A stretch of 64,000 nt of DNA from Escherichia phage vB_EcoM_NBG1, in sequence record MH243438.1, one strand, 5' to 3'. The position numbers and the translations under genes were made by a program. This document shows, in pieces, positions 18,939 through 44,597 of the stretch; the stretch's first letter is position 1, and each line of letters starts with the position of its first letter. The notes beneath the pieces were generated by a model. That model was not told the DNA's origin. It made no database searches and was given only the letters and a program-made list of their open reading frames with translations.

Positions 18939-18966
18939 AATATTTTCCTCTCGTTAAGATAAATTC

Positions 18967-18996
18967 ATTATACTCCAACCATCCTTGGTTGTAAAC
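18967..18996 (-). promoter_or_regulatory. Early promoter with spacer hairpin
   Basis: Minus strand GTTTAC -35, 18-nt spacer containing CAACCA-AGGA-TGGTTG hairpin, TATAAT -10. Confidence 0.5.
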
Positions 18997-19000
18997 TATT

Positions 19001-19960
19001 TTATGATTTTAATGCATTCATTGCGTTAAAAAGTTTAGAATACTGCAACTGGAGATTCGTTACAACACTTTGAGCATCACGAAGCTTAGCTTGTGCTTTG
19101 TCAAGTTCAACAGACAGTTGGTCCATAGTGGCCTTGATTTGATTGTAATGGTAATCTTCGGCCGGAAGAAGGTCATTAGAAACATTTAGTTTTACTGCAG
19201 ACAGTTTGCACACATTTGGCAAACCTTTAAACATTGATTTAGCCGAAGTAGAATAAGCACTTAGGACTTCGGCTTGTTCAATTGGGGTCCCAGTAAGCGA
19301 TGCTTCAAACAATGCATTTTCCTTTTTAAGATTTTGATAGTATTCAGAGTCTTTGTGCCACCATGGCGCAGGAACCTTTTTACCAATAGATACACGAGCC
19401 TGGATAGCGATATTGCCCTTATTCTTGATAGGGTCGATAATATTAAGCTCACGAGAATAAATTGCTTTAATCTGGTGAATATTATCACCTAAAACTTCCA
19501 ACGCTTGGTGGAATACACGAGCAACGTTATCATTCTTAGGTTTATACGTGAGAGTGAACTCGTTCTCACTGATAACCATGATTTCCAACTTATCGTAAGT
19601 ATATTTCAAATGTTTCATGTTAATTGCTTGAGGACGAATACGAGAAGCAATGGCCATCAGATTGTTAAGGTTATTCCGGAACTGCTTAGCGAAATATTGT
19701 CCTTCACCGCCAATACAAAAATTACGAAGTTTCTGTTTGGCCAATAAACGGCTGAACTCGCCATTTTTAATGAACTCTTTAACGGGTGTGTTAGTAACGC
19801 ATTCAAATTGAGTAAACTTACGAGAATTAATCCCATAATACGAACAGATTTCCTCAATCTCTTCAGGAGTCTTTACAGGCATACGGATAGGATTAGGTCC
19901 TGGAGTATATGCGTTCGAGGTAAATTCTTTGATAAGTTCTCTACGTGTAATAAAAGCCAT
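19001..19960 (-). CDS. hypothetical protein with C-terminal coiled coil (319 aa)
   Basis: Same architecture as neighbours. Confidence 0.6.
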   Translation of the reverse strand: MAFITRRELIKEFTSNAYTPGPNPIRMPVKTPEEIEEICSYYGINSRKFTQFECVTNTPVKEFIKNGEFSRLLAKQKLRNFCIGGEGQYFAKQFRNNLNNLMAIASRIRPQAINMKHLKYTYDKLEIMVISENEFTLTYKPKNDNVARVFHQALEVLGDNIHQIKAIYSRELNIIDPIKNKGNIAIQARVSIGKKVPAPWWHKDSEYYQNLKKENALFEASLTGTPIEQAEVLSAYSTSAKSMFKGLPNVCKLSAVKLNVSNDLLPAEDYHYNQIKATMDQLSVELDKAQAKLRDAQSVVTNLQLQYSKLFNAMNALKS

Positions 19961-19986
19961 TTTATATTCCTCATGTTGAAAAATTT

Positions 19987-20016
19987 ATTATACTCCAACC
20001 ATCCTTGGTTGTACAT
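19987..20016 (-). promoter_or_regulatory. Early promoter with spacer hairpin (copy of 18967-18996 core)
   Basis: 24 bp identical to 18968-18993 (ttatactccaaccatccttggttgta); -35 variant ATGTAC. Confidence 0.45.
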
Positions 20017-21011
20017 CATTCCTTAAGAAGTTTTACTACTTGAATAAGATTAGCTCGTTCTGTTTTATTTTTACCATTTAAGCCTGCTAATCGTGAGATT
20101 TCATCGTCAGTCTGTTGAATAGTTACATTAAGTTCGTTAATCAAAGCTTCAAAGTATTTGATTTGCTCAGCATGTTTTGATTCAAATTTCTGAACAGGAA
20201 TAACGTCTTGGTTCAGTTCATCAATAAGGTCTTTAAGAGCATCTTCTTGGTTGATATCATATTCAACTTCTTTTATTTCTTCAACGAGCTCGTCTTTATA
20301 TCTAACGTCTTTTAGTCCTGGTGCTGGTCCTGAAATCTCTTCTTTAAGAGTACAAACATATCCAATACGGTATCCAATGCCGTCTCGCTTGATATCAACT
20401 TCGTCGATAAATCCACAATGTTTAAGCCCGGAGCCGATTATGTCAAAATATCCTTGACGTCGTCCTTCAAACGTTACACGAACTACTAAGACAGTTTTAC
20501 CTGCAACCTTTTGAAGCTCACATTTATAAAAGTCAGTTGAACCTGAATAACGTGGATTAGTTTTAAAGTTCATCTGACGATCTAGGCCCATTTGTAAGCG
20601 TGCTGTTACGGCCATAAAACGTGTTTGGTTCTCGTTAAGATGAGCAACAATCCATTTCAAAGGCATTTTACACTGTTCACGGCCGAACAAATCAGTACGT
20701 CCTAAATTACGCAGGATATTGTTAGAGTTAATCATCGACAGAACGTTAAGTTTATTCAGCGCGCTGAAGATTCCATCGGCCATTGATTTTCCGTAACCTT
20801 TACACGCTTTAATAAGTGCTCGCGGTAGATTAGTATAGATTTCAGACGGCATATGAAAATCAAATTTACTAACCAGTAATTGATGAACTTGGATAGCAAT
20901 TTGTTCATAATTAAGTGCTCTGCGATCATTATGGTCTTTAAACCACACTTTAATCTGTGAAGCACATAAACCGTTAATTTCATGTTTTACCGCATCAGAT
21001 GTAATGCTCAT
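20016..21011 (-). CDS. hypothetical protein with C-terminal coiled coil (331 aa)
   Basis: Globular N-terminal part plus acidic coiled-coil tail. Confidence 0.6.
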   Translation of the reverse strand: MSITSDAVKHEINGLCASQIKVWFKDHNDRRALNYEQIAIQVHQLLVSKFDFHMPSEIYTNLPRALIKACKGYGKSMADGIFSALNKLNVLSMINSNNILRNLGRTDLFGREQCKMPLKWIVAHLNENQTRFMAVTARLQMGLDRQMNFKTNPRYSGSTDFYKCELQKVAGKTVLVVRVTFEGRRQGYFDIIGSGLKHCGFIDEVDIKRDGIGYRIGYVCTLKEEISGPAPGLKDVRYKDELVEEIKEVEYDINQEDALKDLIDELNQDVIPVQKFESKHAEQIKYFEALINELNVTIQQTDDEISRLAGLNGKNKTERANLIQVVKLLKE

Positions 21012-21073
21012 AACTATTTCCTCAGATTGAATTGGAACTCAAAACCATTATAACCCGTCCTTGGGTAAAGCGT

Positions 21074-21601
21074 TTATGCGTGAACCGTCTTTAAACGTTC
21101 TTCAAATTTCCGAAGAGTACTAATACGTTCTGCTTTCTGTTTTGTATAGTTTGCAATACGTTCTGAAGTGAGAGCGTATCGTTCGTTTACTGTTTCTTTC
21201 ATGAAGTCAGGGATTTCACGAGAAGCTTTAATTTCATCAAACTTATCGAGTACTGCCTGGTCTTCAGCAATTAAATTTTCGTACATCTCGATATCTTTCT
21301 TGATGAAGTCGATATCTTCCTGGGTTACTTTGGATAAACGAGATGCTTTATCCTTTTTGTACTGCTCGTTAGTTTCACGAGACCAGAATAATGTACGTTT
21401 TTTGTTAGTGTTTTTGTAGACTTCCACAATTCCAACTGAATCGATGATAACAATCCAATTCCAGCGAGATTTGAAAATCTGACCTCCGTCCACGGTAATC
21501 TCGTTACCATAAGCAATGTCATTAAAGAACTTACTTTGTGCTTCAGATTTAAATTTACCGTCGTTATAATTTACCAGGTTGAAAATATCTTTAGCGTTCA
21601 T
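21074..21601 (-). CDS. hypothetical protein
   Basis: 175 aa; GGAGG Shine-Dalgarno. Confidence 0.55.
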   Translation of the reverse strand: MNAKDIFNLVNYNDGKFKSEAQSKFFNDIAYGNEITVDGGQIFKSRWNWIVIIDSVGIVEVYKNTNKKRTLFWSRETNEQYKKDKASRLSKVTQEDIDFIKKDIEMYENLIAEDQAVLDKFDEIKASREIPDFMKETVNERYALTSERIANYTKQKAERISTLRKFEERLKTVHA

Positions 21602-21628
21602 GTTTTACCTCCAGTAGTTGATAGGTCT

Positions 21629-21657
21629 ATAATAACATAACCATAGACCTTGTAAAC
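21629..21657 (-). promoter_or_regulatory. Early promoter with palindrome GGTCTAT...ATAGACC
   Basis: Minus strand GTTTAC, 17-nt spacer, TATTAT. Confidence 0.5.
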
Positions 21658-21659
21658 AA

Positions 21660-21947: not shown

Positions 21948-22084
21948 AACATATCCTCTTTGATTTGTACATCATTATTTTAAATATTTCTATGCCCTCA
22001 GTAGGTTCCTGGTGTCCTTCTTTGAGGTAAGCCATATGATTATTCATCTTTATGGCTTTTGTTACCTCAGAACTTCCTATAAGC

Positions 22085-23086
22085 TTATTTCAGTAAAGTT
22101 ACTTCAGAGATTTCCTCCCAACCATCTTTATCAGTTGAAATAAAATCTGCTACATAAAGAGCGGTACGTAATGATACATTGCGAAGACGAGATACATTAG
22201 CCTTCATCCAGGACAATGCTTTGTACGTTTCTGCATCCGTCAGGCCACGTTTCTGCATCATGTCAGTAGATAATATTACATCTTCAACTCGAACCATAAT
22301 CTCTTCATTAGAGTGTACTCCAAGGTCGAGATACACTGAACGAGATACTAAAGCTTGAAGGTGTGGAGCAAGTTTCGAACCCCGTTCTAACTCTTTATCG
22401 ATATCAACGTTTGTAATGAAAACGATAGTACCTTCAAACTCAAATTCTTTATCAATACCCTTATCCTCGAGATAAGATGACGCAGTGCTCCAACAAACTT
22501 TGCGTTTATCGCCTGTATCTAATGCTGCTTTAAGAAGGTTCAAGATGTCCATATCTGAGAATACGTCAACGTCGTCGATTAAGAGAACGCTGTCTGCATC
22601 ACGGTTGAGCCAAAGTTGTTCGTAAAGGCCAATACCAGAGATTTTACCATTAATGCTTTTGTATTTGATGAAACCATTACCATTAGCATTATTAAGTGCT
22701 TTATCCAGAGAGTACGTCTTACCAATACCGGCTGCACCTGAAATAATGAGTGAACGAATTTTGCCATCGATAATGCCATTCGTCATCATGTTCATTACTT
22801 TAAAGCGTTTGTTGATACGAGTTTTCATATCTTCAGCGCTTTCAATAACTGCAACTGGTGACGTCTCAACTCCTTCCATTACGATGTCTGATTTGAAGAC
22901 CCATACTCCACGTTCAGAACCATCAATCATAACGAAAATTTTACCATCACCTAAGTGGGAACATTCAGGATTAAGCTTTGCCGGGAACCATGTCTTTGTG
23001 GCGACATAAGAACCAGAGATTTCGTTATTACGATAGATACCTTTTTTGATTTGAACGTTGAACATTTTATTCTCCAATTTACTCAT
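22085..23086 (-). CDS. P-loop NTPase (AAA-like) of unknown function
   Basis: Walker A GAAGIGKT, Walker B VLLIDDVD, sensor-like FITN; ~110-aa N-terminal extra domain. Confidence 0.6.
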   Translation of the reverse strand: MSKLENKMFNVQIKKGIYRNNEISGSYVATKTWFPAKLNPECSHLGDGKIFVMIDGSERGVWVFKSDIVMEGVETSPVAVIESAEDMKTRINKRFKVMNMMTNGIIDGKIRSLIISGAAGIGKTYSLDKALNNANGNGFIKYKSINGKISGIGLYEQLWLNRDADSVLLIDDVDVFSDMDILNLLKAALDTGDKRKVCWSTASSYLEDKGIDKEFEFEGTIVFITNVDIDKELERGSKLAPHLQALVSRSVYLDLGVHSNEEIMVRVEDVILSTDMMQKRGLTDAETYKALSWMKANVSRLRNVSLRTALYVADFISTDKDGWEEISEVTLLK

Positions 23087-23184
23087 TTCGTTTCGATAGG
23101 TCTATAATAACATATCCTAAAAGCATGTACACTACTTTTTTAAAAATATTTTAACCCCCTAAAGGGACCCGAAGGTCCTCGCAT

Positions 23185-23451: not shown

Positions 23452-23482
23452 ATTTACCTCAAGTTAAGAGTTATTTATCTAC

Positions 23483-24942: not shown

Positions 24943-24951
24943 AATAATTCC

Positions 24952-25482: not shown

Positions 25483-25483
25483 A

Positions 25484-25663: not shown

Positions 25664-25827
25664 TTTACCATACTCGTTTCAATAAGATTCACTATGCCGT
25701 TTACCATGTTATAAGTAAACATCGGATAATTGTATTGTACTACAACATAAGAGATAAGCAAAAGTTTCATTTTGTTCTCCGTTCGTTTTGGTAGGACTAC
25801 TATAACATAATCCTACCAAGATGTAAA

Positions 25828-26061
25828 CTACCGATTGTGTTTTAAATGTTGATAAAGTTCTTCAACTTGTTTAGGGTCCAAAACAATTAGGTCATTTTCT
25901 TGACGAAGATAAATCCATCCCTTATCCCCAGGTCCATTTTTACAAAACATCACCACCATATCATCATCTTCAGCGCTTTCAGGTAAAAGTTCAAGTACAC
26001 CGTCTTCAGATTTTCCAGTATAATCGTAAAGCATAATATCCTCACATAATCTCGTTAACAT
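25828..26061 (-). CDS. hypothetical protein
   Basis: 77-aa ORF. Confidence 0.45.
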   Translation of the reverse strand: MLTRLCEDIMLYDYTGKSEDGVLELLPESAEDDDMVVMFCKNGPGDKGWIYLRQENDLIVLDPKQVEELYQHLKHNR

Positions 26062-26221
26062 ACATTTGCAATTCGGAGTGGGCGATGGTCATCTTTTTCA
26101 TAGCTCTGTTAATGTCGATGTCTCCATCTTCGCAACCATGAGCATTTTCCCAATCAGATACCGCATTAGCGTACTCTTCAATCAAAAACATTAACTTTGA
26201 AATCTTTTCTTTACGCGTCAT
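26042..26221 (-). CDS. hypothetical protein (59 aa)
   Basis: Start reassigned to MTRKEK downstream of GAGGAG; longer track ORF would include its own promoter and terminator. Confidence 0.45.
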   Translation of the reverse strand: MTRKEKISKLMFLIEEYANAVSDWENAHGCEDGDIDINRAMKKMTIAHSELQMYVNEIM

Positions 26222-26277
26222 AATGTTCTCCTCTAGTAAGTAAGGACTACTATAACACAACCTGAGGAGAAGTAAAC
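26222..26277 (-). promoter_or_regulatory. Early promoter/Shine-Dalgarno cassette (near-copy of regB cassette)
   Basis: Minus strand GTTTAC-TTCTCCTC...TATAGT...CTAGAGGAGAACATT-ATG. Confidence 0.45.
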
Positions 26278-26285: not shown

Positions 26286-26316
26286 GCCAAAAAGCCCCAA
26301 CCATAAGGAAGGGGCT
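26286..26316 (-). terminator. Rho-independent terminator downstream of rI
   Basis: Minus-strand hairpin GCCCC/GGGGC with inner CC/GG, then TTTTTGG; ~22-bp arm identical to element at 41863-41884. Confidence 0.55.
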
Positions 26317-26322
26317 AGTAAA

Positions 26323-29414: not shown

Positions 29415-29873
29415 CTAGATTTTAATCACTGCTTTAGAAGCTTTTCCTGGTAGTCGTTTACTGTTAATAATAGCCATTCTGCATTGAAGAGTCTTCATTT
29501 TGAATGCCGGATTTTCGCGACAAACTGTAAGTCCTAACCAAAGATTTCCGTCAGTTATTTCTAAACGGCCTGGACGATACTCGACACCTTCGACAAAATC
29601 TTCATCAACATCTGGACGTGCCGGCATTGATAAAAATTCTGCAACTTCTTTAACGTGATTTTTTACTTTATGAAATAATTCAAAAACGTAATTCTCATCT
29701 ATTTCTCTCTGGATGGCACGATCTAAGAGATGTTGAGAATACTTGATATGAAAGCCTGGTAGTCCAAGAGACTTTGCAGCATCTTTTATACCGGCATTTA
29801 TTTTGCGGAACTCCGTTTCAAAGATTCGACGGAGTTTATTACGGCGGATAAAAACTTCCGAATTGATAGTCAT
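29415..29873 (-). CDS. regB: RegB endoribonuclease
   Basis: MTINSEVFIRRNKLRR...LKYSQHLLDRAIQREIDE...RPGRLEITDGNLWLG...QCRMAIINS.RLPGKASKAVIK matches T4 RegB. Confidence 0.85.
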   Translation of the reverse strand: MTINSEVFIRRNKLRRIFETEFRKINAGIKDAAKSLGLPGFHIKYSQHLLDRAIQREIDENYVFELFHKVKNHVKEVAEFLSMPARPDVDEDFVEGVEYRPGRLEITDGNLWLGLTVCRENPAFKMKTLQCRMAIINSKRLPGKASKAVIKI

Positions 29874-29880
29874 TTTGATT

Positions 29881-29930
29881 TCTCCTCTAGTTGACAAGTC
29901 TATAGTAACACAACTAGAGGAGAAGTAAAC
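29881..29930 (-). promoter_or_regulatory. regB early promoter with anti-SD/SD stem
   Basis: Minus strand GTTTAC-TTCTCCTCTAG-TTGTGT-TACTAT-...-CTAGAGGAGA-AATCAAA-ATG; 10-bp perfect inverted repeat. Confidence 0.55.
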
Positions 29931-32449: not shown

Positions 32450-32764
32450 TTATTCTTTAGGGAAGTTTTTAGAGTATGCATCATAAAGTTTATTACCAAT
32501 ACGACGGAAGACTTTAGCTGCAAAACGGTTTTCAGGGTTTTTAATCATGATTTGCATCATGTAAGTTCCTGCATCCGAAAGAGCTTCTTCATAGTACCCA
32601 TTAATTTCTTTAAGAGTCCTACGTTTACCACCAGGACCATCAACAGTAATTTTCCATTTACCTGTAGAAGTGCGGCTCGGTGGCTCAACTTGTTCAATCC
32701 AAATATAACCACCTTCAACGCGTTGGTTGGCGGATTCTGCAATAAATTCTTTATACGTTTTCAT
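32450..32764 (-). CDS. Internal-protein-like protein
   Basis: Starts MKTYKEFIAE. Confidence 0.6.
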   Translation of the reverse strand: MKTYKEFIAESANQRVEGGYIWIEQVEPPSRTSTGKWKITVDGPGGKRRTLKEINGYYEEALSDAGTYMMQIMIKNPENRFAAKVFRRIGNKLYDAYSKNFPKE

Positions 32765-32828
32765 TTTTTGTTTCCTTGTTTGTTTTGATAGAGTAATTAT
32801 ACCATATTAATACTTAAGCGTAAACAAT

Positions 32829-33095: not shown

Positions 33096-33509
33096 TTAGT
33101 AAATTGATTTACCATAGTATTTGTACCAAGTCGGACGTTGAGCAATTTTTTCATCTAAGCGTGCTTGACTTATCGCAATGGACTCTTCGGACGGGATGTA
33201 ATTATTACGAAATTCTACAGGAATGTCGGAAATATCCTGGACTGTCGTGTCCTTGATTTTGAAACCACGTTTCAAACATTCGGCTATTAGCTCGATTTGA
33301 CGTAAACGTAAAAATTCGAGTTTGTCGTAAAAGAATGTTACGTGACCTGTGCCTAAGATAAATGTTGGAGAGATTTTAAAATCTTTTACACGTTTACCAT
33401 TTTGAACATGTTTACGGACTGCACCAAATACGCGTGGTAATTCACGATACTCAGCCATAAGATGTTGGTCGGACAGTTCAGAAACAAGTGTTAAATTGAT
33501 ACGAGTCAT
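33096..33509 (-). CDS. denV: Endonuclease V (pyrimidine-dimer DNA glycosylase)
   Basis: [35 protein letters not shown]... close match to T4 DenV. Confidence 0.9.
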
Positions 33510-33513
33510 AATT

Positions 33514-33566
33514 TCCTCCAAGTAGTTGATAGATGTATAGTATCAAAGTCCTTGGAGGAAGTAAAC
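33514..33566 (-). promoter_or_regulatory. denV early promoter with anti-SD/SD stem
   Basis: Minus strand GTTTAC-TTCCTCCAAG-...TACTAT...-CTTGGAGGAA-ATT-ATG; 10-bp perfect inverted repeat. Confidence 0.55.
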
Positions 33567-34334: not shown

Positions 34335-34362
34335 AATACCTCCCACGTTTATAGGAGGTATT
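34335..34362 (-). promoter_or_regulatory. Hairpin sequestering the lysozyme Shine-Dalgarno
   Basis: 9-bp stem AATACCTCC/GGAGGTATT; 3' arm abuts ATG; loop TATAAACGTG resembles late-promoter core. Confidence 0.55.
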
Positions 34363-36227: not shown

Positions 36228-36228
36228 A

Positions 36229-36534
36229 TTATTTTCCTCGACATTCTTTAATGAAATTTTCTAGATTGGTAGATTCAATAGCTTTTTTACGAGCTTCTGC
36301 ATGTTCTTCTTCAGACAATTTACATTTATAATTAACCCAGACATTATGGTCGAAACTAGTCGTGGCATATAATAACAATGCTCCAACGAATAGCAAAAAC
36401 GGCGATAAGAATACAAAACCAGGAACACCATCCATATCGTAAGCCTTTTGTAATACTGCAACAGAAAGAGCTGCGTAAAAAGGTGATGCAAATATTGTTA
36501 AAAGACCAATTCGGTTGGTTTCGCCTAATTTCAT
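36229..36534 (-). CDS. membrane protein with C-terminal FIKECR tail
   Basis: 101 aa, two TM helices, ends ...NLENFIKECRGK. Confidence 0.5.
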   Translation of the reverse strand: MKLGETNRIGLLTIFASPFYAALSVAVLQKAYDMDGVPGFVFLSPFLLFVGALLLYATTSFDHNVWVNYKCKLSEEEHAEARKKAIESTNLENFIKECRGK

Positions 36535-36592
36535 AATATTCTCCTCATGTTTTAATAGGACTACTATAATATATCCCTATCAGTTTGTACAC

Positions 36593-36811
36593 TTATTTTG
36601 ACATTTCTTCGATGTCACGACGATACCCATCACGAACTTCACGAAGAGCTTCAAGGCCACACATAGGCTCGATACCAGTAATGTGAACTTGATTAATCTG
36701 ATACTCTACATCTTCTAACTGAGCGAAAACATAACGACGTTCTGCTGCACAACCGGGTTTAGCTTTACCGAAACGTTTATTCAAAGTAGTCATTTTTATA
36801 TCTCCATTCAC
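36593..36811 (-). CDS. hypothetical protein
   Basis: 72-aa ORF. Confidence 0.45.
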   Translation of the reverse strand: MNGDIKMTTLNKRFGKAKPGCAAERRYVFAQLEDVEYQINQVHITGIEPMCGLEALREVRDGYRRDIEEMSK

Positions 36812-36873
36812 TCATTTGTTTTGATAGGTCTATAGTATCAACAACTACAGACCTTGTAAACTGTTTTGTGAAA

Positions 36874-37830
36874 TTATTTGAAAGGTTTTACCATATGAAA
36901 GTTTTGTTTGAAACGCTTGACGTAATCGTCGTGTCCTAAGCTTTGGTACATACTTACTACTTTGCTATAATTTTCCCAAGCGAACTCACGGAACCATCCT
37001 GATGTGATTGATGTACAGACCTTTTCAAGGGCCATCATAAAACTATCACGTGGATGGATTTTAAAGTCGTTAGGAATCTGTGAACGTTCAAGAGCTAATA
37101 CACAAGCTTCTTCATATACACCGGCTAATTTAACCATTTCTGGTAATGATTTGAACTTCTCGCGTGATGTCATAACTTCTGAGCCTTCTTTCATATAAAA
37201 CTTATAAGCAGGCTGGTCAGTTAGTGCAATGGCTTCATGAATAGTATCATGGTCATATGTATAGATGTCATCTTTAAAGAACGCACTTTTAGAAGTGTCA
37301 AGAACTGGGTGAGCATAATTCAAGGTTTCTTTCTGGCGTTTCAGCATAATTTCAGTAAGTTCATCGTTCAGTGTAACACCTTTACCACGAAGATACTGAA
37401 TATGATTCATAGTCTTTAAAAAGAATGGATTATTTTTCTTGAAACGATGAGACATCTTAATTGCAAGACATATCTCGGGAGTTGCCCAGTAAAACCCGTT
37501 CAAACGGTCTTTAGTCAAATTTTTCTTGGCGTATTTTAAAAGGTCATAAGAAGACGTGAAATCTTCAGGAGTGAGTTCACCAACTAATTCACGGACATTA
37601 GTGATTGCCGGAACAATATATGCTTCAAAATGAGTTTCGCGTCCATTATGGAAGCATTTGAAAACTTGGACGTCAGGGTTATCTTGGTGAACGTATACAC
37701 CCATCATTTGATTTTTGAATGCATTCCAAGAACATTGGTCCGCAATAAAATCCCAATCACTATTTTTGATAGCGCTAGAATCAATAAGACCATGATAGTG
37801 AAGTGCACGAGAACCAATAACTAACATCAT
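36874..37830 (-). CDS. hypothetical protein (318 aa)
   Basis: N-terminal GSRALHYHG...DWDF loosely nucleotidyltransferase-like; not convincing. Confidence 0.5.
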   Translation of the reverse strand: MMLVIGSRALHYHGLIDSSAIKNSDWDFIADQCSWNAFKNQMMGVYVHQDNPDVQVFKCFHNGRETHFEAYIVPAITNVRELVGELTPEDFTSSYDLLKYAKKNLTKDRLNGFYWATPEICLAIKMSHRFKKNNPFFLKTMNHIQYLRGKGVTLNDELTEIMLKRQKETLNYAHPVLDTSKSAFFKDDIYTYDHDTIHEAIALTDQPAYKFYMKEGSEVMTSREKFKSLPEMVKLAGVYEEACVLALERSQIPNDFKIHPRDSFMMALEKVCTSITSGWFREFAWENYSKVVSMYQSLGHDDYVKRFKQNFHMVKPFK

Positions 37831-37855
37831 AATAATTTCCTCGAATTTAGATTAC

Positions 37856-38107
37856 TTAAATTTCACGACATGCGATATTATATTCATCCCAGAGGTCATC
37901 ATGTGAAGCCTCTACCAATGGAACGATTGTACCGTTTATGTCTTCATTATAAGGGCAAATTGTACAGTGCGCATCTTCGAATCGGATGCCTTTGTGTTCA
38001 GATTTTTTATAACGCATATCGAATATCTTTGCAAACTTTTCACGAGTAATAGTTTTAGCAACCACTTTGGTTCCGATACTTTCGTAATAAATCATTGTGG
38101 ACTCCAT
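37856..38107 (-). CDS. hypothetical protein
   Basis: 83-aa ORF. Confidence 0.45.
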   Translation of the reverse strand: MESTMIYYESIGTKVVAKTITREKFAKIFDMRYKKSEHKGIRFEDAHCTICPYNEDINGTIVPLVEASHDDLWDEYNIACREI

Positions 38108-38157
38108 TTGTTTTGATAGGACTACTATAACATAGCCCTATCTTGTTGTAAACTGTT

Positions 38158-38355
38158 TTAGCAAGAATAACTAGATGATACCCAGCCTTGAACAGTGATA
38201 CTATTGTGGGATAATGAGATCGCGTCCTGGAGATTCAGACCTGCGTTATCTTCAATCCATAATGTAACTTCTTCGCGTTCTTCTGTTGCAATTTGGAACA
38301 GGTTTTCCAGAGCAGCTACTGCCGTACGTACAGCACAATCTAATTCACGAGACAT
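38158..38355 (-). CDS. small protein, GxWVSSSxxC family member A
   Basis: 65 aa ending QGWVSSSYSC. Confidence 0.5.
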   Translation of the reverse strand: MSRELDCAVRTAVAALENLFQIATEEREEVTLWIEDNAGLNLQDAISLSHNSITVQGWVSSSYSC

Positions 38356-38364
38356 ATTGTTTCC

Positions 38365-38637
38365 TTAGCAAGTGTGAGAAGATGCGACCCAACCACCAGT
38401 TTCGAGGCTCAGGTTGTAGTCGTATTGGTAAACGTCAGCCCATTCAGCATAGCCGTTTTTTGTACAACGTTCAAGATCGGCTTTAAGATGTCCGGGTGAA
38501 TGATAGGTTCCACCCATACCATAAGCTGGATACAAGTCGAATGTTGTGTTTTGTTTATCAGCAATTTCTTTGGCAGCCTCAATAGCTGCATAGATTTTTG
38601 CTACAGCTTCAGCCAGTTCGGTTTGTTCTTTAGACAT
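38365..38637 (-). CDS. small protein, GxWVSSSxxC family member B
   Basis: 90 aa ending GGWVASSHTC. Confidence 0.5.
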   Translation of the reverse strand: MSKEQTELAEAVAKIYAAIEAAKEIADKQNTTFDLYPAYGMGGTYHSPGHLKADLERCTKNGYAEWADVYQYDYNLSLETGGWVASSHTC

Positions 38638-38646
38638 AATGATTCC

Positions 38647-38952
38647 TTAGCACAACGCAGAAGACGAAACCCAAGCACCTTCAGTAATAACGTAACCGTT
38701 ACCTTCACGCTTAACATCGCCACCATTATTTTCAATTTCATCTTTCATCCACTGGGATACGATTTCACCCTTAGGATAATAAGTACGACCACTACCATAA
38801 TCACCTACAGAAAATGATACAGCATATTGGTCTGCGATCTTTGTTGCTTCTTCTTCGATACGTTCAGCTTGATTCAGAAGTTTATAAATTGCATCTGAAG
38901 CGGATTTGGCATCATTAAACTCTGGTACTTTAATTTCAATAATCTTACTCAT
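38647..38952 (-). CDS. small protein, GxWVSSSxxC family member C
   Basis: 101 aa ending GAWVSSSALC. Confidence 0.5.
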   Translation of the reverse strand: MSKIIEIKVPEFNDAKSASDAIYKLLNQAERIEEEATKIADQYAVSFSVGDYGSGRTYYPKGEIVSQWMKDEIENNGGDVKREGNGYVITEGAWVSSSALC

Positions 38953-39308
38953 TTTCTACATTCCTTAATAAAGTTTTCGATTGTTTCATTTTCACGTTTA
39001 GCTAGGAGTTCATTATAACTAATCATTTGAGAAGCGTAAACCTTTTTATTTTTCTTGTTATGGTTTATAAAATCGTAGTAAAAATAGACCACAGTACAAA
39101 ATGATGCGATGGATGCAAAGGCTTGGGTATACCGTAAGTCCTGCCATTGGTCTGTGAATCCACCGGTATTCCCTATAAATCCTAACACAACTCCGTCAAT
39201 AAGAAATCCAACTAATCCAAAGGCAAATCCCATGCCAATACTCATAATAAAAATTAGAATGTTCTCGCCGAGAGAAGGCCGAACAGTTAAGAGTTTAGGT
39301 TTTTGCAT
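38949..39308 (-). CDS. membrane protein with C-terminal FIKECR tail
   Basis: 119 aa, ends ...ETIENFIKECRK. Confidence 0.5.
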   Translation of the reverse strand: MQKPKLLTVRPSLGENILIFIMSIGMGFAFGLVGFLIDGVVLGFIGNTGGFTDQWQDLRYTQAFASIASFCTVVYFYYDFINHNKKNKKVYASQMISYNELLAKRENETIENFIKECRK

Positions 39309-39712
39309 CTTATTTCCTTAACGAATTCCATAGCTTCTTCGTATTCGTACTTTTTAACAGCTTCGTCATACTGAGCTTGGGCTTTTGCGCACTGAACTTT
39401 CCATTCGCGTACTCGAGCTCTATAATGACGTCCTTGGTACCAATATCCCACCCAGTTAATAGGCATTAATAAAAATGGCACAATAAACGACCCGGCTATA
39501 ATAAGTAAAAACACTGCATCAGACGATATAACTTCACTAGAATCTAAAACAGCTCCTATAATCATAAAGATTAAAAATGCTAAAGCTAAAATAGGGCCAA
39601 ATAGTACTTCGTTTGGGATTAATTTACGTTTGTATTCGTATGCCCAGGGCTTAATTGGTTGATAAAGGGTTGGCTTTGACATATTCTCTACATTCCATAA
39701 TAAATTGCTCAA
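39287..39712 (-). CDS. membrane protein with FVKEIRC tail variant
   Basis: 141 aa (or 131 from MSKPTLY), ends ...EEAMEFVKEIRCKNLNS. Confidence 0.5.
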   Translation of the reverse strand: MSNLLWNVENMSKPTLYQPIKPWAYEYKRKLIPNEVLFGPILALAFLIFMIIGAVLDSSEVISSDAVFLLIIAGSFIVPFLLMPINWVGYWYQGRHYRARVREWKVQCAKAQAQYDEAVKKYEYEEAMEFVKEIRCKNLNS

Positions 39713-40253
39713 GGATTAAATTGTTAGTGAAATTAGGACTAACAACCATAGTTTCATAAAGCGCATCAATAGCACTTAAAGCATCAACTCTCTTAAGCAA
39801 AGGCTTGCCTTCATACATAGTTTCAGAATCGACGATTAAAGTGAAGTAGTATTTTTTATTATTGACCAGAACTTCTGTATCAATATAAAACATGTTAGAC
39901 CTCAGAAGCTTATCTCTAAAACCATAATAATCTTTAGAGCGTTCGCTGATATATTCCCATTCAGTGTTTAAACAACAAACAGACCATGTAGGAGCAACGA
40001 AATCGGTGAATCTAATATCATGGTCTGCAACTAGTTTAGCAATAGCTCCGATATCATGAATCATAATACCTGGGGTTAATAAAGATTTTCTGCTATGGCT
40101 AGCCGTTTTCTCAGTAGTCTCATAAGAAGACGACCAGTACCATTTACGTCCAGTTGCAACATATCGTAATGAATCAACTAAAGACGTAGGTGGATTTACC
40201 TTATCTCGGAACTCTTCGAACATTGAGTCAATATCATTATTTTGGTTTCGCAT
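39651..40253 (-). CDS. hypothetical protein with FIMECR near C-terminus
   Basis: Start reassigned to MRNQNNDIDSMFEEF (AAGGAG upstream); ends ...LEQFIMECREYVKANPLSTN. Confidence 0.5.
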   Translation of the reverse strand: MRNQNNDIDSMFEEFRDKVNPPTSLVDSLRYVATGRKWYWSSSYETTEKTASHSRKSLLTPGIMIHDIGAIAKLVADHDIRFTDFVAPTWSVCCLNTEWEYISERSKDYYGFRDKLLRSNMFYIDTEVLVNNKKYYFTLIVDSETMYEGKPLLKRVDALSAIDALYETMVVSPNFTNNLILEQFIMECREYVKANPLSTN

Positions 40254-40272
40254 GTTAACTCCTTTATTATCC

Positions 40273-40294
40273 AAAAGGAGGACCGGAGTCCTCC
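40273..40294 (-). terminator. Hairpin terminator after gene 40303-40896
   Basis: GGAGGAC-CGGA-GTCCTCC with T-rich tracts on both sides. Confidence 0.5.
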
Positions 40295-40302
40295 GTATTA
40301 TT

Positions 40303-40896
40303 TTATTTCAAAGAGTTAATATATTCTTGTACATCAGCAGAAGTGGTTTCGACACCAGCTGGAGTGCCATTGAACGTTTCAACACGAGTCAGAGTGTCTT
40401 CGATATCAACCTTAGTCAGTGCAGCGATTTCAATTACATCATCAGCCGTAGAGATACCAAGGGCATTGGCTGCTCGAGTTTCACGAATGTATTCGAGTTT
40501 GATTGCCAGATTCTGACGAGCATCATCAAGTTCAACCACCTTACGAGCAATTTCAATTCGCATAGCGGCATACCCGTCAGCTTTTGTATTAAGTTGTTCG
40601 GCAGTTCGACGATACAGAAGACCAAGCTTAGCATGCATAGTAACATCTTGTCCTTCAGCCAGGAGCTTACGAATTTCACGTTCCTTAGAAGCGGCTTGCT
40701 TGTTCTTTTCATTAACAAGTTCGCGAATACGTTTTTCTTCATTAATAGATTTAACAGAAGCCGTTTTTAGTTCTTTGATTTGGGTAATCAACTTATCTGC
40801 AGCTGCGTTATACTGTTCTTCGACAGTCAGATTTTTAGCCATAGCAGTACCCAGTTTAGTGCGGATGAATTCAACAAGTTTCTTCAGTGTGTTCAT
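40303..40896 (-). CDS. coiled-coil protein
   Basis: 197 aa from [14 protein letters not shown] (track uses upstream TTG). Confidence 0.5.
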
Positions 40897-40918
40897 ATTA
40901 TTACCTTTCAATTGGTGG

Positions 40919-40977
40919 TTTATTATCCAACGAGAGCATTATACTCTGCTCTCAAGAGTTTGTAAATTATTTTTTAA
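40919..40977 (-). promoter_or_regulatory. Early promoter hairpin cassette (copy of 10128-10186)
   Basis: ~59 bp, 5 differences from the 10.1-kb copy; stem arms GAGAGC/GCTCTC show compensatory change. Confidence 0.5.
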
Positions 40978-41194
40978 TCAAATTGACATAAAACTCGGCG
41001 TCTTCCGGGTGCATGCCTTCGCAGTATTCTTCAACCATGAACTTCTTAACAGCTTCATAAGGACCACTCAGATTAAGCTCAGTTGTCCAGAACTTGGAAT
41101 CTTGGGCTGAATCGATACGAACTTCAGGGTGTCGGTTGCGAATAACTTCTTCGGTGTATTCATAATCAACGACATCAATACTAACTTTAGCCAT
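40967..41194 (-). CDS. hypothetical protein
   Basis: 75-aa ORF. Confidence 0.45.
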   Translation of the reverse strand: MAKVSIDVVDYEYTEEVIRNRHPEVRIDSAQDSKFWTTELNLSGPYEAVKKFMVEEYCEGMHPEDAEFYVNLIKK

Positions 41195-41240
41195 TTTGTT
41201 TTCCTCTTGATTTGATGTGATTACTATAACATAAACTTAC

Positions 41241-41405
41241 TTAGATGTAAATTATTTCAACGTCACCTTTAGCTGCTTTATAACCTTCAGCCCAAGATAC
41301 AACAGAGTTTTTATCCGAGGATTCAAATTCAGGCATTGGACTTTCACCAATATTCACACAGTATGTTTCTTCATTTTCATCGAACCAAATAATTAAAGTA
41401 GTCAT
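41241..41405 (-). CDS. small hypothetical protein (54 aa)
   Basis: Hand-translated MTTLIIWFDENEETYCVNIGESPMPEF... Confidence 0.3.
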   Translation of the reverse strand: MTTLIIWFDENEETYCVNIGESPMPEFESSDKNSVVSWAEGYKAAKGDVEIIYI

Positions 41406-41473
41406 TTTGTTTACTCCTCTGTAGTTGATAAGTCTATAGTATCACCGTCCTTGGTGCTTGTACATCGTTATTT

Positions 41474-41779
41474 TTAATTTTTCCAACTTAACAACTTGTA
41501 GTGTCCTTCATTCATACATGGTTTATCCCAAGAAATACTAATATATGATTCACCGTCAATAGAAGTCGCCGGGTTTTTCTCTACCGTAAGACCTTCACTT
41601 TCCAGCCATTCAATAGTATTTGCGCATAAATCGGAAGAACACCTCATCGGAAACCTGCAAGATTTTTCACCTTTAGCTGCAGTGTTATACATCTTTTCTA
41701 AAATACGCTTTTGCACGTTTTTAAAAATAGTTTCAGCAGATTCTTCAGATTTTTTATTCAGTTCAGTGTAAAGACTCAT
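41474..41779 (-). CDS. hypothetical protein
   Basis: 101-aa ORF. Confidence 0.5.
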   Translation of the reverse strand: MSLYTELNKKSEESAETIFKNVQKRILEKMYNTAAKGEKSCRFPMRCSSDLCANTIEWLESEGLTVEKNPATSIDGESYISISWDKPCMNEGHYKLLSWKN

Positions 41780-41865
41780 AATATTTTCCTCATGTTTTTA
41801 TAGGTCTATAGTAACACATCTAGGGAAGAAGTAAACAACTTTATGAAATATTTTTATGCCCTAGA

Positions 41866-41896
41866 TGCCAAAAAGCCCCAACCTTTCGGAAGGGGC
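41866..41896 (-). terminator. Rho-independent terminator closing the tRNA transcription unit
   Basis: Hairpin GCCCC..CC-TTTC-GG..GGGGC followed by TTTTTGG; sequence copy of terminator at 26286-26316. Confidence 0.55.
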
Positions 41897-41939
41897 TATG
41901 CCTTGCGGCAACCTTGTCGGGGTTCCACCTGCTAAGGCA

Positions 41940-42205
41940 AGTGTTTGTACGAAACGCCGGGATTCGAACCCGGTTATTAAGCAGTTGACGCTACTCAATA
42001 TTTTTAAAAGGCCATATCTCGACCATATCCGAACGTTCCGTCAAAAACGCTACTCGGCTTACGGCAAATATATTTCCTCGAATCGATAATTCTGTGCGCC
42101 GTTTCTGCTGTGATGTAAGGGGATATTAACAAATCGTAAAGATTTATTAAGACCAGTCCTTACTCAGGGAACATCAGTCCGACGACTTACCGGTAGCGAC
42201 CCGGC
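41940..42205 (-). ncRNA. candidate small stable RNA(s) with tRNA-like 3' domain
   Basis: Perfect T-arm ACCGGG-TTCGAAT-CCCGG followed by acceptor-like CGTTTCG able to pair with upstream CGGAACG; no canonical cloverleaf found. Confidence 0.3.
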
Positions 42206-42208
42206 TTC

Positions 42209-42553
42209 TTATTTTGGCATATCATCAATTTGCTCTCGACGCCGACGCCATAGATTAATCGCTTCATTGGCACATTCTGCGTTTGGTATATGACGGCAGT
42301 AATATAATGATTCGCGTTTCTGGAACCGATGTTGCAACGGGATTTCGTTTAAAAGGTCTTTACGGTCAAAGTATTCAAAACTAGTTAACCCAGAACGGTT
42401 TTTAATGAACTTCCAATGGCCGAATTCATTTTGAACATAGATGTAATCTGCATGTTGGTATAACAAATTAATCAATCGGTCTGAAATAACTGTATCATTT
42501 TCGTTAAAATAAAACGTTAAATCATGAACTACCAAATAAATATTGCCTTTCAT
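42209..42553 (-). CDS. hypothetical protein abutting tRNA-Arg
   Basis: 114 aa from MKGNIYLVVHDL; longer track ORF would overlap the tRNA. Confidence 0.45.
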   Translation of the reverse strand: MKGNIYLVVHDLTFYFNENDTVISDRLINLLYQHADYIYVQNEFGHWKFIKNRSGLTSFEYFDRKDLLNEIPLQHRFQKRESLYYCRHIPNAECANEAINLWRRRREQIDDMPK

Positions 42554-42571
42554 ATTTTCCTCACTTAAAGT

Positions 42572-42648
42572 TGGCCGAGACAGAAGGATTCTAACCTTCA
42601 ACCTACGGATTAGAATTCCGTTGCTCTATACAATTGAGCTATGCCTCG
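42572..42648 (-). tRNA. tRNA-Arg (anticodon UCU)
   Basis: 77-nt cloverleaf folded by hand with 7-bp acceptor stem, GCTC/GAGC D-stem, anticodon loop AUUCUAA, T-arm GAAGG-TTAGAAT-CCTTC, encoded CCA. Confidence 0.7.
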
Positions 42649-42654
42649 AATATA

Positions 42655-42728
42655 TGACCCAGACCAGATTCGAACTGGTAACCTTTCCCTTATGAGGGGA
42701 CTGCTGCTAACCATTGAGCTACAGGGCC
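42655..42728 (-). tRNA. tRNA with CAU anticodon (Met or Ile2 type)
   Basis: 74 nt, anticodon loop CUCAUAA, T-arm ACCAG-TTCGAAT-CTGGT; one acceptor mismatch and unclear D-stem in my reading. Confidence 0.6.
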
Positions 42729-42805
42729 TAAATAACTTTCTATTATGAAAGGCACTTTAGAGCACCTTTGGTAATAGAGGGTAGATTAATAATAACACAT
42801 AATTC

Positions 42806-43321
42806 TTAAAGCAAATCAATCATTTTAACAGTCGGCAAAACAATTTCTTCTTCAATATAAGCGAATTCAACACGTTCAACTACACGCAAGAAATCATAGT
42901 CGTAGTATTCGGAAGCATAGCCAAGAATATCAATAAGTCCTTGAGATATCTCATCGCCTTTCACAAAGAACAGGTCGAATACGCGGGCTTCGTCTTCTTC
43001 AGATTTATCACCAAGGTCTACTTCGATACCAAAGACCTTTTTAATAAATTCCGGTTGGAGTTGGTCTGAGAACAGTCCTTCAACCAAGTATTCATAGATT
43101 AAAAGCGAGCAATCACTGAATGGTGTATTACCACAATAACGTTCGGCTTTAGTGCTAGAATGACGACTCTTAAATTTCTTCAAGAGATATTTAAACTGTT
43201 GGAGCTCATGCTCTTCTACACCAAATAATGTTTTGGTTTTATAGTTGTCGCCGTCATTTTCCCAAGTAGTGACATCAATTACGTAACCCTTAGGAATTGT
43301 ACTGCCTAAACAAATATTCAT
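42806..43321 (-). CDS. hypothetical protein
   Basis: 171-aa acidic ORF. Confidence 0.5.
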   Translation of the reverse strand: MNICLGSTIPKGYVIDVTTWENDGDNYKTKTLFGVEEHELQQFKYLLKKFKSRHSSTKAERYCGNTPFSDCSLLIYEYLVEGLFSDQLQPEFIKKVFGIEVDLGDKSEEDEARVFDLFFVKGDEISQGLIDILGYASEYYDYDFLRVVERVEFAYIEEEIVLPTVKMIDLL

Positions 43322-43325
43322 TTAC

Positions 43326-43616
43326 TCACCGTACCATATTAATGTAATTATATTCAATGCAACGTAATTTCAAAGGATTCTTGAAAATATCATATTCAAG
43401 AGGGCCTTTTTCTGTTTCAATAAAGAAATCAAAGTTAACTGTGTTAAATTTATCGTCTTCACAAAATAATTTAACCTGTGAAGATGAACGGTCGATATAA
43501 ACCTTTTCAACCTCAAAGTTGGTCAGAATACCGTAGTCATCGACTAGTGCTTTAGCTGCACGTTGATCGCTTTCGTATCCGTTCTCAATAGATGACACTT
43601 TAGCATAAAGAATCAT
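43326..43616 (-). CDS. hypothetical protein
   Basis: 96-aa ORF. Confidence 0.5.
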   Translation of the reverse strand: MILYAKVSSIENGYESDQRAAKALVDDYGILTNFEVEKVYIDRSSSQVKLFCEDDKFNTVNFDFFIETEKGPLEYDIFKNPLKLRCIEYNYINMVR

Positions 43617-43993
43617 GAGTGTTCCACCACTTCAAAGGTATGAGCATCAACAATATGATACCAGTCAAAATTTTCTTCTGCGTTTTTATAAATTTCACGA
43701 AGAGCCTCAACAGTTTTTCCTGTAGCAACAAGGTCGTCAATACCGCCAAGAGGATAACAGTCGTAACCAGCAAACAGAAGGAAATTAACAGTTTCTGTAG
43801 GTTCTGGATGCAGAACACCGTTATCGTCTACCACTTCAAAGAAAGTGTAAGAAGGAGTACAAGTTTTAATCCAAGCCCATGCTTGAGCTGCTGAATCAAA
43901 TGGTCTGCGTATCAAACGACAATCAGGGTCTTTAGAAGGATTTGCTTCAAAATCAGCATATACGTGATATTTCATTTTACTCACCTTTTGCAA
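43613..43993 (-). CDS. hypothetical protein
   Basis: 126 aa; start may be MKYHVY at 43975. Confidence 0.5.
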   Translation of the reverse strand: MQKVSKMKYHVYADFEANPSKDPDCRLIRRPFDSAAQAWAWIKTCTPSYTFFEVVDDNGVLHPEPTETVNFLLFAGYDCYPLGGIDDLVATGKTVEALREIYKNAEENFDWYHIVDAHTFEVVEHS

Positions 43994-44183
43994 TTTTATC
44001 CATAACGATAGCGATTAAACCGATTAGAAATGCTACTACCAATGAGATAGAATTTTCTGTTGTTGTCAGTAGTCCACAAATGAATCCTACAAACATCGAA
44101 AAACTAAAAGCCATTGAAGCAATTACTACAGCAACATTACGAATCAGTTCAGCGCGTTTCATTTTATTTCTCCATTTACTCAT
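43977..44183 (-). CDS. small membrane protein
   Basis: 68 aa, one or two hydrophobic helices. Confidence 0.45.
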   Translation of the reverse strand: MSKWRNKMKRAELIRNVAVVIASMAFSFSMFVGFICGLLTTTENSISLVVAFLIGLIAIVMDKIAKGE

Positions 44184-44232
44184 TTGTTTTGATAGGACTA
44201 CTATAACATAGTCCTATCAGCATGTAAACTAC

Positions 44233-44520
44233 TTACAGAAGAGTTTTTGCAATAATTTTAAGCTGAGCTACAGAAATATGCTTAGCTTTAAACAGTGCAG
44301 TCTCTTCGGCCGGAGAGATAACAATAGTAGCGCCGTCTTTCTTAGCAGACCATCCATCCCCTAAGTAAACAGTACCTTTTACTTCTTCACCGTCAACCAG
44401 ACTAATCATTGGTTTACCCTCACGTCCTTTATTTGCTTTAATAACTTCGGAAGTAAGGGTTGCTTCGGTCAGAGTAGAAACGTTAGCAACAGGTGATATA
44501 AATTCTTTATAGGTTTTCAT
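44233..44520 (-). CDS. ipI: Internal protein I-like
   Basis: 95 aa starting MKTYKEFIS; positioned upstream of 57B as T4 ipI. Confidence 0.6.
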   Translation of the reverse strand: MKTYKEFISPVANVSTLTEATLTSEVIKANKGREGKPMISLVDGEEVKGTVYLGDGWSAKKDGATIVISPAEETALFKAKHISVAQLKIIAKTLL

Positions 44521-44597
44521 TTTATTTCCTTGAGGTTGTTTATTTGATAGGATGATAGTAACACACCATCATCCTTATGTAAACTGTTTTGTGAAAA

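Follow-up and report, generated by a model that had tools for sequence, protein, structure and literature searches.

Early promoters set between hairpin arms in an RB69-like T-even phage: stem-loop cassettes that probably act in read-through RNA

Why should a T4-like phage place so many of its early promoters inside palindromes? The question is raised by a 64,000-nucleotide (nt) stretch of Escherichia phage vB_EcoM_NBG1 (record MH243438.1), referred to as a whole as the window. A preliminary description, made from the letters alone, had listed 14 minus-strand early-promoter modules within positions 18960-44595, each said to be embedded in a palindrome, and had pointed to the PeSL (promoter-early plus stem-loop) elements of T4-like phages, which proved to be the right comparison (PMC2839356, PMC4122927). 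Our analysis indicates that the sites are probably PeSL-type cassettes of a T-even phage, with the hairpin acting in sense-strand RNA that reads through from upstream. Read downstream, the GTTTAC -35 of a cassette is preceded by an upstream element rich in A/T and followed by a spacer of 17-18 nt; next come a TAnnnT -10, a start region with the conserved letters ATCAA... and, finally, a GGAG-type Shine-Dalgarno sequence matching the RegB consensus. Only the spacer and the 6-8 nt after the -10 are left free by promoter function, and about half of the cassettes have evolved complementarity between these positions; the arms sit there because no other positions are unconstrained by the promoter.

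The minus-strand promoter array is real. The T4-specific promoter pattern.T[GT]TAC-N17-18-TA[TC][ATC][AG]T matches 24 times on the minus strand of the window and not once on the plus strand, with 1.6 +/- 1.1 matches per strand expected from a first-order Markov model, and all 14 listed sites are among the matches. The generic sigma-70 scan gave no enrichment (47 vs 45; 59 vs 47) because it is too permissive, and the T4-specific pattern was used in its place; enrichment is limited to GTTTAC, which makes the signal one of T4-type early promoters specifically. Promoters and their cassettes are named here by the position where the -35 starts on the minus strand. Eighteen intergenic promoters lie inside the range, namely the 14 listed and four more (40967, 32825, 20016 and 18996), three lie beyond it (18016, 11605 and 10176), and two further matches fall within open reading frames (ORFs; 39041 and 31305). 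Each promoter is followed by a Shine-Dalgarno sequence 14-30 nt downstream and then by an annotated start codon, and the sequence upstream of the -35 in the cassettes is A-rich. Most leaders carry Shine-Dalgarno sequences of the GGAGAAnAAAA type, which match the RegB/S1 consensus (PMC1702504). The shared core GATAGGACTACTATAACA quoted in the preliminary description occurs eight times at up to 3 mismatches, where 0.1 occurrences are expected. The accompanying statement that nearly every small gene is its own transcription unit was too strong: 18 intergenic promoters serve about 60 annotated genes, roughly one per 3-4 genes. The RefSeq record of T4 has no annotated promoter features for comparison.

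Hairpin strength was expressed as a folding z-score against dinucleotide shuffles for 18 promoters. Strong hairpins (z -2.5 to -6.2; -13 to -21 kcal/mol) are present at nine of them (44584, 44229, 40967, 38153, 36861, 33566, 29930, 25828 and 21657) and weak ones at three (36592, 26277 and 10176); at six of the 18 (41836, 41465, 41252, 32825, 23132 and 18996) the z-score reveals no hairpin. Among the 14 sites listed previously, eight have a strong and two a weak hairpin, and four have none, so that inverted repeats overlapping the -10 are confirmed for about half of the promoters and not for each. A general inverted-repeat search was swamped by AT-rich near-palindromes and was of no use. In a test of specificity, each spacer was paired with the post-spacer segments of all promoters, a segment running from the -10 to just short of the ATG. 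The natural combinations have a mean duplex energy of -10.9 kcal/mol, compared to -7.7 +/- 0.7 kcal/mol when partners are permuted among promoters, and none of 10,000 permutations reached the natural value. As the spacers pair specifically with their own segments, the palindromes are not a property of the shared consensus; the hairpins are selected, not accidental. The arms are unlike between copies and matched within each copy (GATAGGACTA/TAGTCCTATC, AGGTCTAT/ATAGACCT, AGGATGAT/ATCATCCT, GAGAGC/GCTCTC and TTCTCCTCTAGTTG/CAACTAGAGGAGAA), and the cassettes 40967 and 10176 show a compensatory pair, GAGAGC/GCTCTC versus GAGAGA/TCTCTC.

Two kinds of hairpin can be told apart. Class A has its arms on either side of the -10 and a loop that reads (TG)TTATA or similar; in class B, comprising regB, denV and mobD.2a, the spacer pairs with the Shine-Dalgarno sequence. 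The cassettes are given below with their breakpoints, which refer to the relatives L001, L002, Mosigvirus LF82-8 (L004) and SA79RD; the other comparison genomes are T4 (L003), Dhakavirus WG01 (L005) and a Klebsiella T4-like phage (L006).

44518..44584 (-): cassette before ipI; -35 at 44579-44584, -10 at 44555-44560; class A arms 44564-44575 / 44549-44560 (-), AGGATGATGGTG / TACTATCATCCT; z -4.5, -15.4 kcal/mol.
44160..44229 (-): cassette before trna.4, holding the shared core; -10 at 44200-44205; class A arms 44208-44219 / 44190-44201 (-), TGATAGGACTAT / GTAGTCCTATCA; z -5.3, -17.7 kcal/mol; insertion/deletion (indel) junction versus LF82-8 at 44173-44175.
41777..41836 (-): cassette before ORF 41474-41779; no significant embedded hairpin, z -0.8; breakpoints versus L001, L002 and LF82-8 at 41842-41870.
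41403..41465 (-): cassette before ORF 41241-41405; ATGTAC variant of the -35; no hairpin, z -0.85; L001 breakpoint at 41481.
41192..41252 (-): cassette before the frd.3-like ORF 40967-41194; ATTTAC -35; no hairpin, z +1.4.
40894..40967 (-): cassette before e.6, absent from the earlier list; paralogue of 10176; class A, GAGAGCA / TGCTCTC around the -10 (40938-40943); z -2.9; insertion junction versus SA79RD at 40958-40972.
38093..38153 (-): cassette before ORF 37856-38095; class A arms 38132-38142 / 38115-38125 (-), GATAGGGCTAT / GTAGTCCTATC, with one G·U pair; z -5.9, -16 kcal/mol.
36791..36861 (-): cassette before ORF 36593-36793; class A arms 36844-36854 / 36826-36836 (-), AGGTCTGTAGT / ACTATAGACCT, with one G·U pair; z -3.75; edge of the segment 36581-36854 missing in LF82-8.
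36532..36592 (-): cassette before ORF 36229-36534; GTGTAC -35; degenerate class A hairpin, z -1.35, intact in the LF82-8 copy (ATAGGACTA / TAGTCCTAT).
33507..33566 (-): cassette before denV; class B, spacer 33551-33560 (TTCCTCCAAG) pairing with the Shine-Dalgarno region 33513-33522 (CTTGGAGGAA); z -6.2, -19 kcal/mol.
32762..32825 (-): cassette before ORF 32450-32764, absent from the earlier list; no hairpin, z +0.2.
29871..29930 (-): cassette before regB; class B, spacer 29911-29924 (TTCTCCTCTAGTTG) pairing with 29880-29893 (CAACTAGAGGAGAA), Shine-Dalgarno included; z -5.0, -21.4 kcal/mol.
26219..26277 (-): cassette before mobD.2a; weaker class B, TTCTCCTC / GAGGAGAA; z -1.3; LF82-8 breakpoint at 26288-26316.
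25768..25828 (-): cassette before mobD.2; class A arms 25807-25819 / 25788-25800 (-), TTGGTAGGATTAT / GTAGTCCTACCAA; z -3.9, -18.3 kcal/mol.
23063..23132 (-): cassette before nrdC.10; GTGTAC -35; no embedded hairpin, z +0.3.
21599..21657 (-): cassette before nrdC.8; class A arms 21640-21650 / 21623-21633, AGGTCTATGGT / ATTATAGACCT; z -2.5.
19958..20016 (-): cassette before nrdC.5; ATGTAC -35; only a small hairpin, AACCA / TGGTT, wholly within the spacer.
18936..18996 (-): cassette before nrdC.3; spacer identical to that of 20016; no hairpin across the -10, z +0.1.
11544..11605 (-), outside the range: partial Shine-Dalgarno-masking stem, TCCTCGATAG / CTATAGAGGA; -10.8 kcal/mol; probably class B.
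10107..10176 (-), outside the range: paralogue of 40967 with compensatory arms GAGAGA / TCTCTC; z -1.4.

Two pairs of cassettes resemble each other closely. The segments 40915-40967 and 10124-10176 (-) are near-identical paralogues 30 kb apart (aaactcttgagagNNgagTATAATNctctcgttggataataaa). The sites 18967-18996 and 19987-20016 (-) have the same 18-nt spacer, aaccaaggatggttggag, which contains the whole of a small hairpin, and the genes behind them are neighbours of similar size, nrdC.3-like and nrdC.5-like (316 and 319 amino acids).

Comparison with relatives revealed the same specificity of pairing. In the homologous regions of T4, LF82-8 and WG01, 0 of 5,000 permutations reached the self-pairing value in each genome, and in the Klebsiella phage 5 of 5,000 did. 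The arms themselves have changed together: those of the ipI promoter are AGGATGAT/ATCATCCT in the window and GATGAGGTA/TACCTCATC in T4, those of the mobD.2 promoter are TTGGTAGGATTA/TAGTCCTACCAA in the window and the unrelated AGTTGACAAGATTA/TAATCTTGTCAACT in T4, and those of the denV promoter are TTCCTCCAAG/CTTGGAGGAA and TCTCCTGTAG/CTACAGGAGA, respectively; at the orthologous trna.4 and regB promoters of T4, the arms likewise differ from those of the window. The nrdC.8 promoter even switches class, being of class A in the window and of the Shine-Dalgarno-masking type in T4 and WG01. Covariation had been proposed earlier as a check. With the symmetry axis fixed on bases 1 and 2 of the -10, all 45 non-redundant promoters of these genomes whose spacer is 18 nt long, taken without pre-selection, have 54.2% paired cells, compared to 48.8 +/- 1.3 for shuffled and 32-48% for slid partners, and their covariation score (0.264 vs 0.192) was reached by 0 of 500 shuffles; RNAalifold, run on an alignment of 13 mixed regB/denV leaders, predicted no pairs and no consensus structure.

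The RNAalifold result arises because the MAFFT alignment leaves the arms out of register, and duplex energies of self versus cross pairs were used in its place. The regB and denV loci were gathered from IMG/VR, a viral contig collection, by means of the RegB and DenV proteins, and the Shine-Dalgarno mask is present in at least five regB and at least seven denV lineages. The part of the mask that covers the Shine-Dalgarno sequence is constant, and its extensions are lineage-specific and complementary (CTAGTTG/CAACTAG, CTTGACTG/CAGTTAAG, CTTTATG/CATAAAG, TGTAAG/CTTACA, GTTTG/CAAAC and TGTG/CACA). Over 12 distinct lineages the self energy is -19.0 kcal/mol and the cross energy -12.1 +/- 0.9 kcal/mol, with 0 of 20,000 permutations reaching the former. 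In other denV lineages the 5' arm sits between the -10 and the start, not in the spacer, and is still upstream of the start.

Which molecule folds can be judged from the mismatches that the stems tolerate. A T4-like set fixed a priori, covering five genomes and the regB and denV loci, yielded 43 distinct stems, located with a scoring in which G·T and A·C carry the same penalty. They contain 20 G·T and only 3 A·C positions (p = 5e-4), a ratio stable to the score threshold and to end trimming. Any G·T in the sense strand reads as A·C in its complement, and the bias therefore argues for a single-stranded form of the sense strand, that is, RNA. The usual sigma-70 start lies ~7 nt after the -10, and this distance was assumed for the geometry. 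With such a start the 5' arm is always upstream of the start, and so is most of the 3' arm in class A; the preliminary description had let each unit carry its structured element, which the start so placed contradicts. A start inside the hairpin would mean that only RNA read through from an upstream promoter can fold it. The predicted unpaired probability of the Shine-Dalgarno core was compared between the read-through RNA and the RNA from the cassette's own promoter, and it is 0.00 vs 0.47 for denV, 0.00 vs 0.65 for regB and 0.20 vs 0.68 for mobD.2a. Similar though less clear masking is predicted for 11605 (0.20 vs 0.52) and 20016 (0.01 vs 0.57).

These observations suggest that the stem-loops tell read-through RNA from locally initiated RNA. 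A transcript made from the promoter within the cassette would begin between the arms, and the hairpin would be confined to transcripts begun upstream. In class B the read-through RNA would be untranslatable and RegB-protected at that gene, the gene's own early RNA would have a free Shine-Dalgarno sequence, and masking would limit translation to the immediate-early period. In class A, where the Shine-Dalgarno sequence is left free, the hairpin would most likely be an intercistronic insulator on read-through RNA; it might do so by attenuation, the role proposed by the PeSL authors, or as a 3' barrier guarding the cistron upstream once RegB or RNase E has cut the leader downstream.

Several points weigh against this proposal. 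A hairpin is missing at eight or nine of the 21 promoters; a promoter can thus function without one, and not every gene needs it. In the unfiltered fixed-register test the signal is modest (54% vs 49%), since the set also holds promoters that lack a hairpin or have it in another register. Adding heterogeneous pattern matches from IMG/VR lowers the G·U:A·C count to 23:10 (p = 0.035); that scan contains many chance matches from unrelated phages and served only as a rough contrast. Class A hairpins leave the predicted accessibility of the Shine-Dalgarno sequence unchanged and have no U-run, which makes the role of class A the weakest link. The start-site positions and the read-through are those that we infer, as are all effects on translation, decay and termination, and no transcription-start or 3'-end map for T4-like phages was found in the literature.

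The phage and its gene block were placed by comparison with related records. More than 100 coliphages match the segments 36000-45000 and 19000-43900 with 95-97% identity over 80% or more of the segment length; examples are vB_Eco_F31, mobillu, APCEc01 and mar005P1, these four being Mosigvirus (RB69-like Tevenvirinae). From the annotated relative L001, the block reads nrdC.x - mobD - tk - vs/regB - denV - e - tRNA - ipI, with about 60 genes and two tRNAs on the minus strand throughout. The tRNA genes (42575-42728, (-)) have counterparts annotated as tRNA-Arg and tRNA-Met in related records and are the only elements of the window to reach the gathering score of an Rfam covariance model; no hairpin family does.

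About 8 of the 11 indel junctions that separate positions 18-46 kb from L001, L002 and LF82-8 coincide with cassettes, which occupy ~6% of this region (23179, 26288-26316, 36580 and 36855, 39041, 40958-40972, 41481, 41842-41870 and 44173). In LF82-8, the segment 36581-36854, one small ORF between two cassettes, is replaced by a single hybrid cassette. As repeats of ~60-90 base pairs (bp), the cassettes would also serve as recombination sites for the gain and loss of gene modules. It tells against this reading of the junctions that breakpoints of whole-gene indels are expected to be intergenic anyway. At 37150-37228 of LF82-8 lies a chimeric cassette whose promoter and hairpin are those of trna.4 in the window and whose leader, atcaaaattaattaggaaaataaa, is that of T4 ipI; the junction is at the conserved ATCAAAA of the start site, and the cassette adjoins an extra internal-protein gene. 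A perfect GTTTAC-N18-TATAAT inside an ORF at 39012-39041 (-) coincides exactly with an indel breakpoint versus LF82-8, and may be a remnant cassette.

The explanation that competes most directly is the original PeSL proposal, in which the hairpins are rho-independent terminators or attenuators that stop upstream transcription and let each cassette restart expression. It has experimental backing in another phage, as an RB49 PeSL stem-loop cut lacZ expression as strongly as rrnB T1 (PMC2839356), and in the SA79RD record the same palindromes between genes carry the label 'rho-independent terminator (WebGeSTer)'. The embedded hairpins of the window are nevertheless not canonical terminators. None is a GC-rich hairpin with a U-run, the 3' flank being ATCAAAAC or ATCAACTAC, and no T-run follows any of them; the stems measure 10-14 bp and are of mixed or AT-rich sequence, and none is recovered by terminator scans that find other terminators in the region. 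The geometry of class B, with a loop of 17-30 nt and the Shine-Dalgarno sequence as 3' arm, is not terminator-like either. True terminators do occur just upstream of the -35 of three promoters with a weak or no hairpin (41836, 26277 and 23132). Those at 41836 (~41860-41895) and 26277 (~26300-26335) (-) are canonical paralogues ~30 nt upstream of the -35, with the paired letters AGCCCCTTCC..GGTTGGGGCTTTTTGG (given as AGCCCCTTCC..GGTTGGGGCTTTTT for the 41836 copy), and promoter 23132 is preceded, at 23153-23169, by a hairpin that resembles a terminator and has a T-run. Embedded hairpin and upstream terminator may therefore be interchangeable devices, but their complementary distribution (3/11 vs 0/9) is not significant. 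On this evidence we regard termination as a somewhat unlikely function of the embedded hairpins, though as a serious contender.

The palindromes could also act in DNA, as an operator for a dimeric regulator of early shut-off, or as cruciform or recombination sites, such as substrates of endonuclease VII, that drive shuffling. The incomplete understanding of T4 early-promoter shut-off (PMC3014915, PMC2988021), the fixed place of the symmetry axis on the -10 in the main class, the coincidence of indel breakpoints with cassettes and the PeSL mini-circles reported in PMC2839356 would all fit. Arm sequences are, however, wholly different between copies and offer no shared recognition half-site, the 20:3 excess of G·T over A·C on the sense strand would bring no benefit to the recognition of a duplex or to a two-strand cruciform, the partner in class B is the Shine-Dalgarno sequence 17-30 nt away, and recombination requires only a repeated sequence, not a palindrome; action in DNA is therefore improbable. 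Least probable by far is that the palindromes are chance features of AT-rich intergenic DNA or a partly palindromic promoter consensus spread by duplication, even though some sites have stems of only 4-5 bp, several cassettes are clear paralogues sharing >30 nt and the core motif recurs eight times. Promoter chimeras pair much worse than natural combinations in five genomes, dinucleotide shuffles seldom reach the natural energies, the arms diverge and remain complementary, and chance pattern matches in unrelated viral contigs are mostly without hairpins; the permutation tests already contradict this explanation.

Two other candidates were rejected. Stems of 10-14 bp are too short for RNase III sites, and hairpins formed in the open-complex bubble are incompatible with stems that reach far beyond -11 to +2. 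Two further observations concern hairpins with T-runs. At 40277-40294, between e.5 and e.6, a GC-rich perfect palindrome, GGAGGACCGGAGTCCTCC, has T-runs on both strands and looks like a bidirectional terminator. At four denV loci on phage contigs of ~350 kb (L167, L168, L172 and L173), a GC hairpin with a T-run behind it encloses a TTGAC -35 (GGGTTGACTTCGGTCAGCCCTTTTT..TATAAT) some 40-75 nt before the denV ATG; this is an RB49-style PeSL with a true terminator overlapping the -35.

Returning to the hairpins as signals in read-through RNA, a wider proposal is that the early promoter between hairpin arms is a general Tevenvirinae device that marks the origin of a transcript; this is a possibility that we put forward tentatively, with more doubt than confidence. 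If true, translation and RegB sensitivity of regB, denV, nrdC.8 and similar genes would be confined to immediate-early transcripts, and the -10-flanking class would insulate or stabilise the upstream cistron. The principle described for the four late genes e, soc, 49 and I-TevI would widen to a large share of early genes, and PeSL stem-loops would gain an RNA-level function other than termination. If confirmed, it would help to explain immediate-early versus delayed-early expression in T-even phages and the strong conservation of the cassettes. The cassettes are also of practical interest for annotation, as such sites are labelled terminators in at least one current record.

Among known systems, the PeSLs are the closest relatives. 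They were defined in RB49/phi1 by Arbiol et al. (2010): an AT-rich region leads into a sigma-70-like promoter with a stem-loop, usually located between the -35 and -10 or across the -10, and a Shine-Dalgarno sequence and ATG follow; the proposed roles are those of terminator or attenuator (one lacZ test) and of recombinational shuffling (PMC2839356); Comeau et al. (2014) described them in T4/PST (TTTACW-N17-TAYWAT) and KVP40/nt-1 and expected them in all T4-like phages (PMC4122927). The cassettes of the window share the strong sigma-70-type early promoter, which fits the T4/PST form, the AT-rich upstream sequence, at about half of them the stem-loop in the spacer or overlapping the -10, the Shine-Dalgarno sequence and ATG at the 3' end, the clustering before small ORFs in hyperplastic regions, and the co-location with indels between close relatives. 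They stand directly before the Shine-Dalgarno sequence and ATG in the region nrdC-tk-vs-e-tRNA-ipI. Compared to the RB49 elements, they belong to the lineage Mosigvirus, and their stems are of mixed sequence without a U-run, whereas those of RB49 are polyG/polyC. The PST/T4 stem-loops are placed just upstream of the promoter in PMC4122927, whereas many span the -10 here and, by this analysis, in T4. The promoter/stem-loop cassette is thus already published for three other T4-like branches and is here extended to RB69-like phages. The main additions are the selection for sense-strand RNA, seen in the G·U bias and the compensatory arms, the start placed between the arms, and the conserved Shine-Dalgarno-masking subclass at regB and denV; the consulted parts of the PeSL papers describe no such subclass, and neither the G·U strand bias and compensatory arms nor the position of the start appears there or in the T4 reviews consulted.

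Two other kinds of intergenic RNA hairpin invite comparison. Canonical intrinsic terminators likewise lie between genes downstream of a stop codon, whereas the embedded hairpins have no U-tract, less GC-rich stems and a -10 hexamer in the loop or stem. REP-type intercistronic stabiliser hairpins block 3'-5' exonucleases in polycistronic mRNA. The cassettes resemble them in having a stable intercistronic stem-loop without a U-run, ~20 nt upstream of a likely RegB GGAG site; they differ in having no sequence relationship, in being tied to a promoter and in their fixed register on the -10, and a stabilising function is putative here.

The nearest precedent for the mechanism is found in T4 itself. 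For e, soc, 49 and I-TevI, the longer early transcripts fold into a hairpin that hides the ribosome-binding site, and a late promoter is situated within that hairpin; RNA secondary structure also shields GGAG from RegB (PMC3014915). The classical ribosome-binding-site hairpin of gene e (lysozyme) is kept in the window at 34333-34358 (-), as ATACCTCC ... GGGAGGTAT around the Shine-Dalgarno sequence; a late-promoter-like AATAAATA directly precedes it on the 5' side. The internal promoter of the cassettes, by contrast, is of the early sigma-70 type (GTTTAC-N17-18-TAnnnT) and not the late gp55 type (TATAAATA), and in class B alone it would confine translation to the immediate-early period rather than delay it. 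Masking of the Shine-Dalgarno sequence is predicted for denV, regB and mobD.2a, and for no class A cassette. Both systems place the promoter between the arms and the Shine-Dalgarno sequence in the 3' arm, and in both the RNA begun upstream would fold and be masked, and the promoter-proximal RNA would lack the 5' arm, which for class B is a prediction. For the four T4 late genes, the logic that class B would follow has been demonstrated by experiment.

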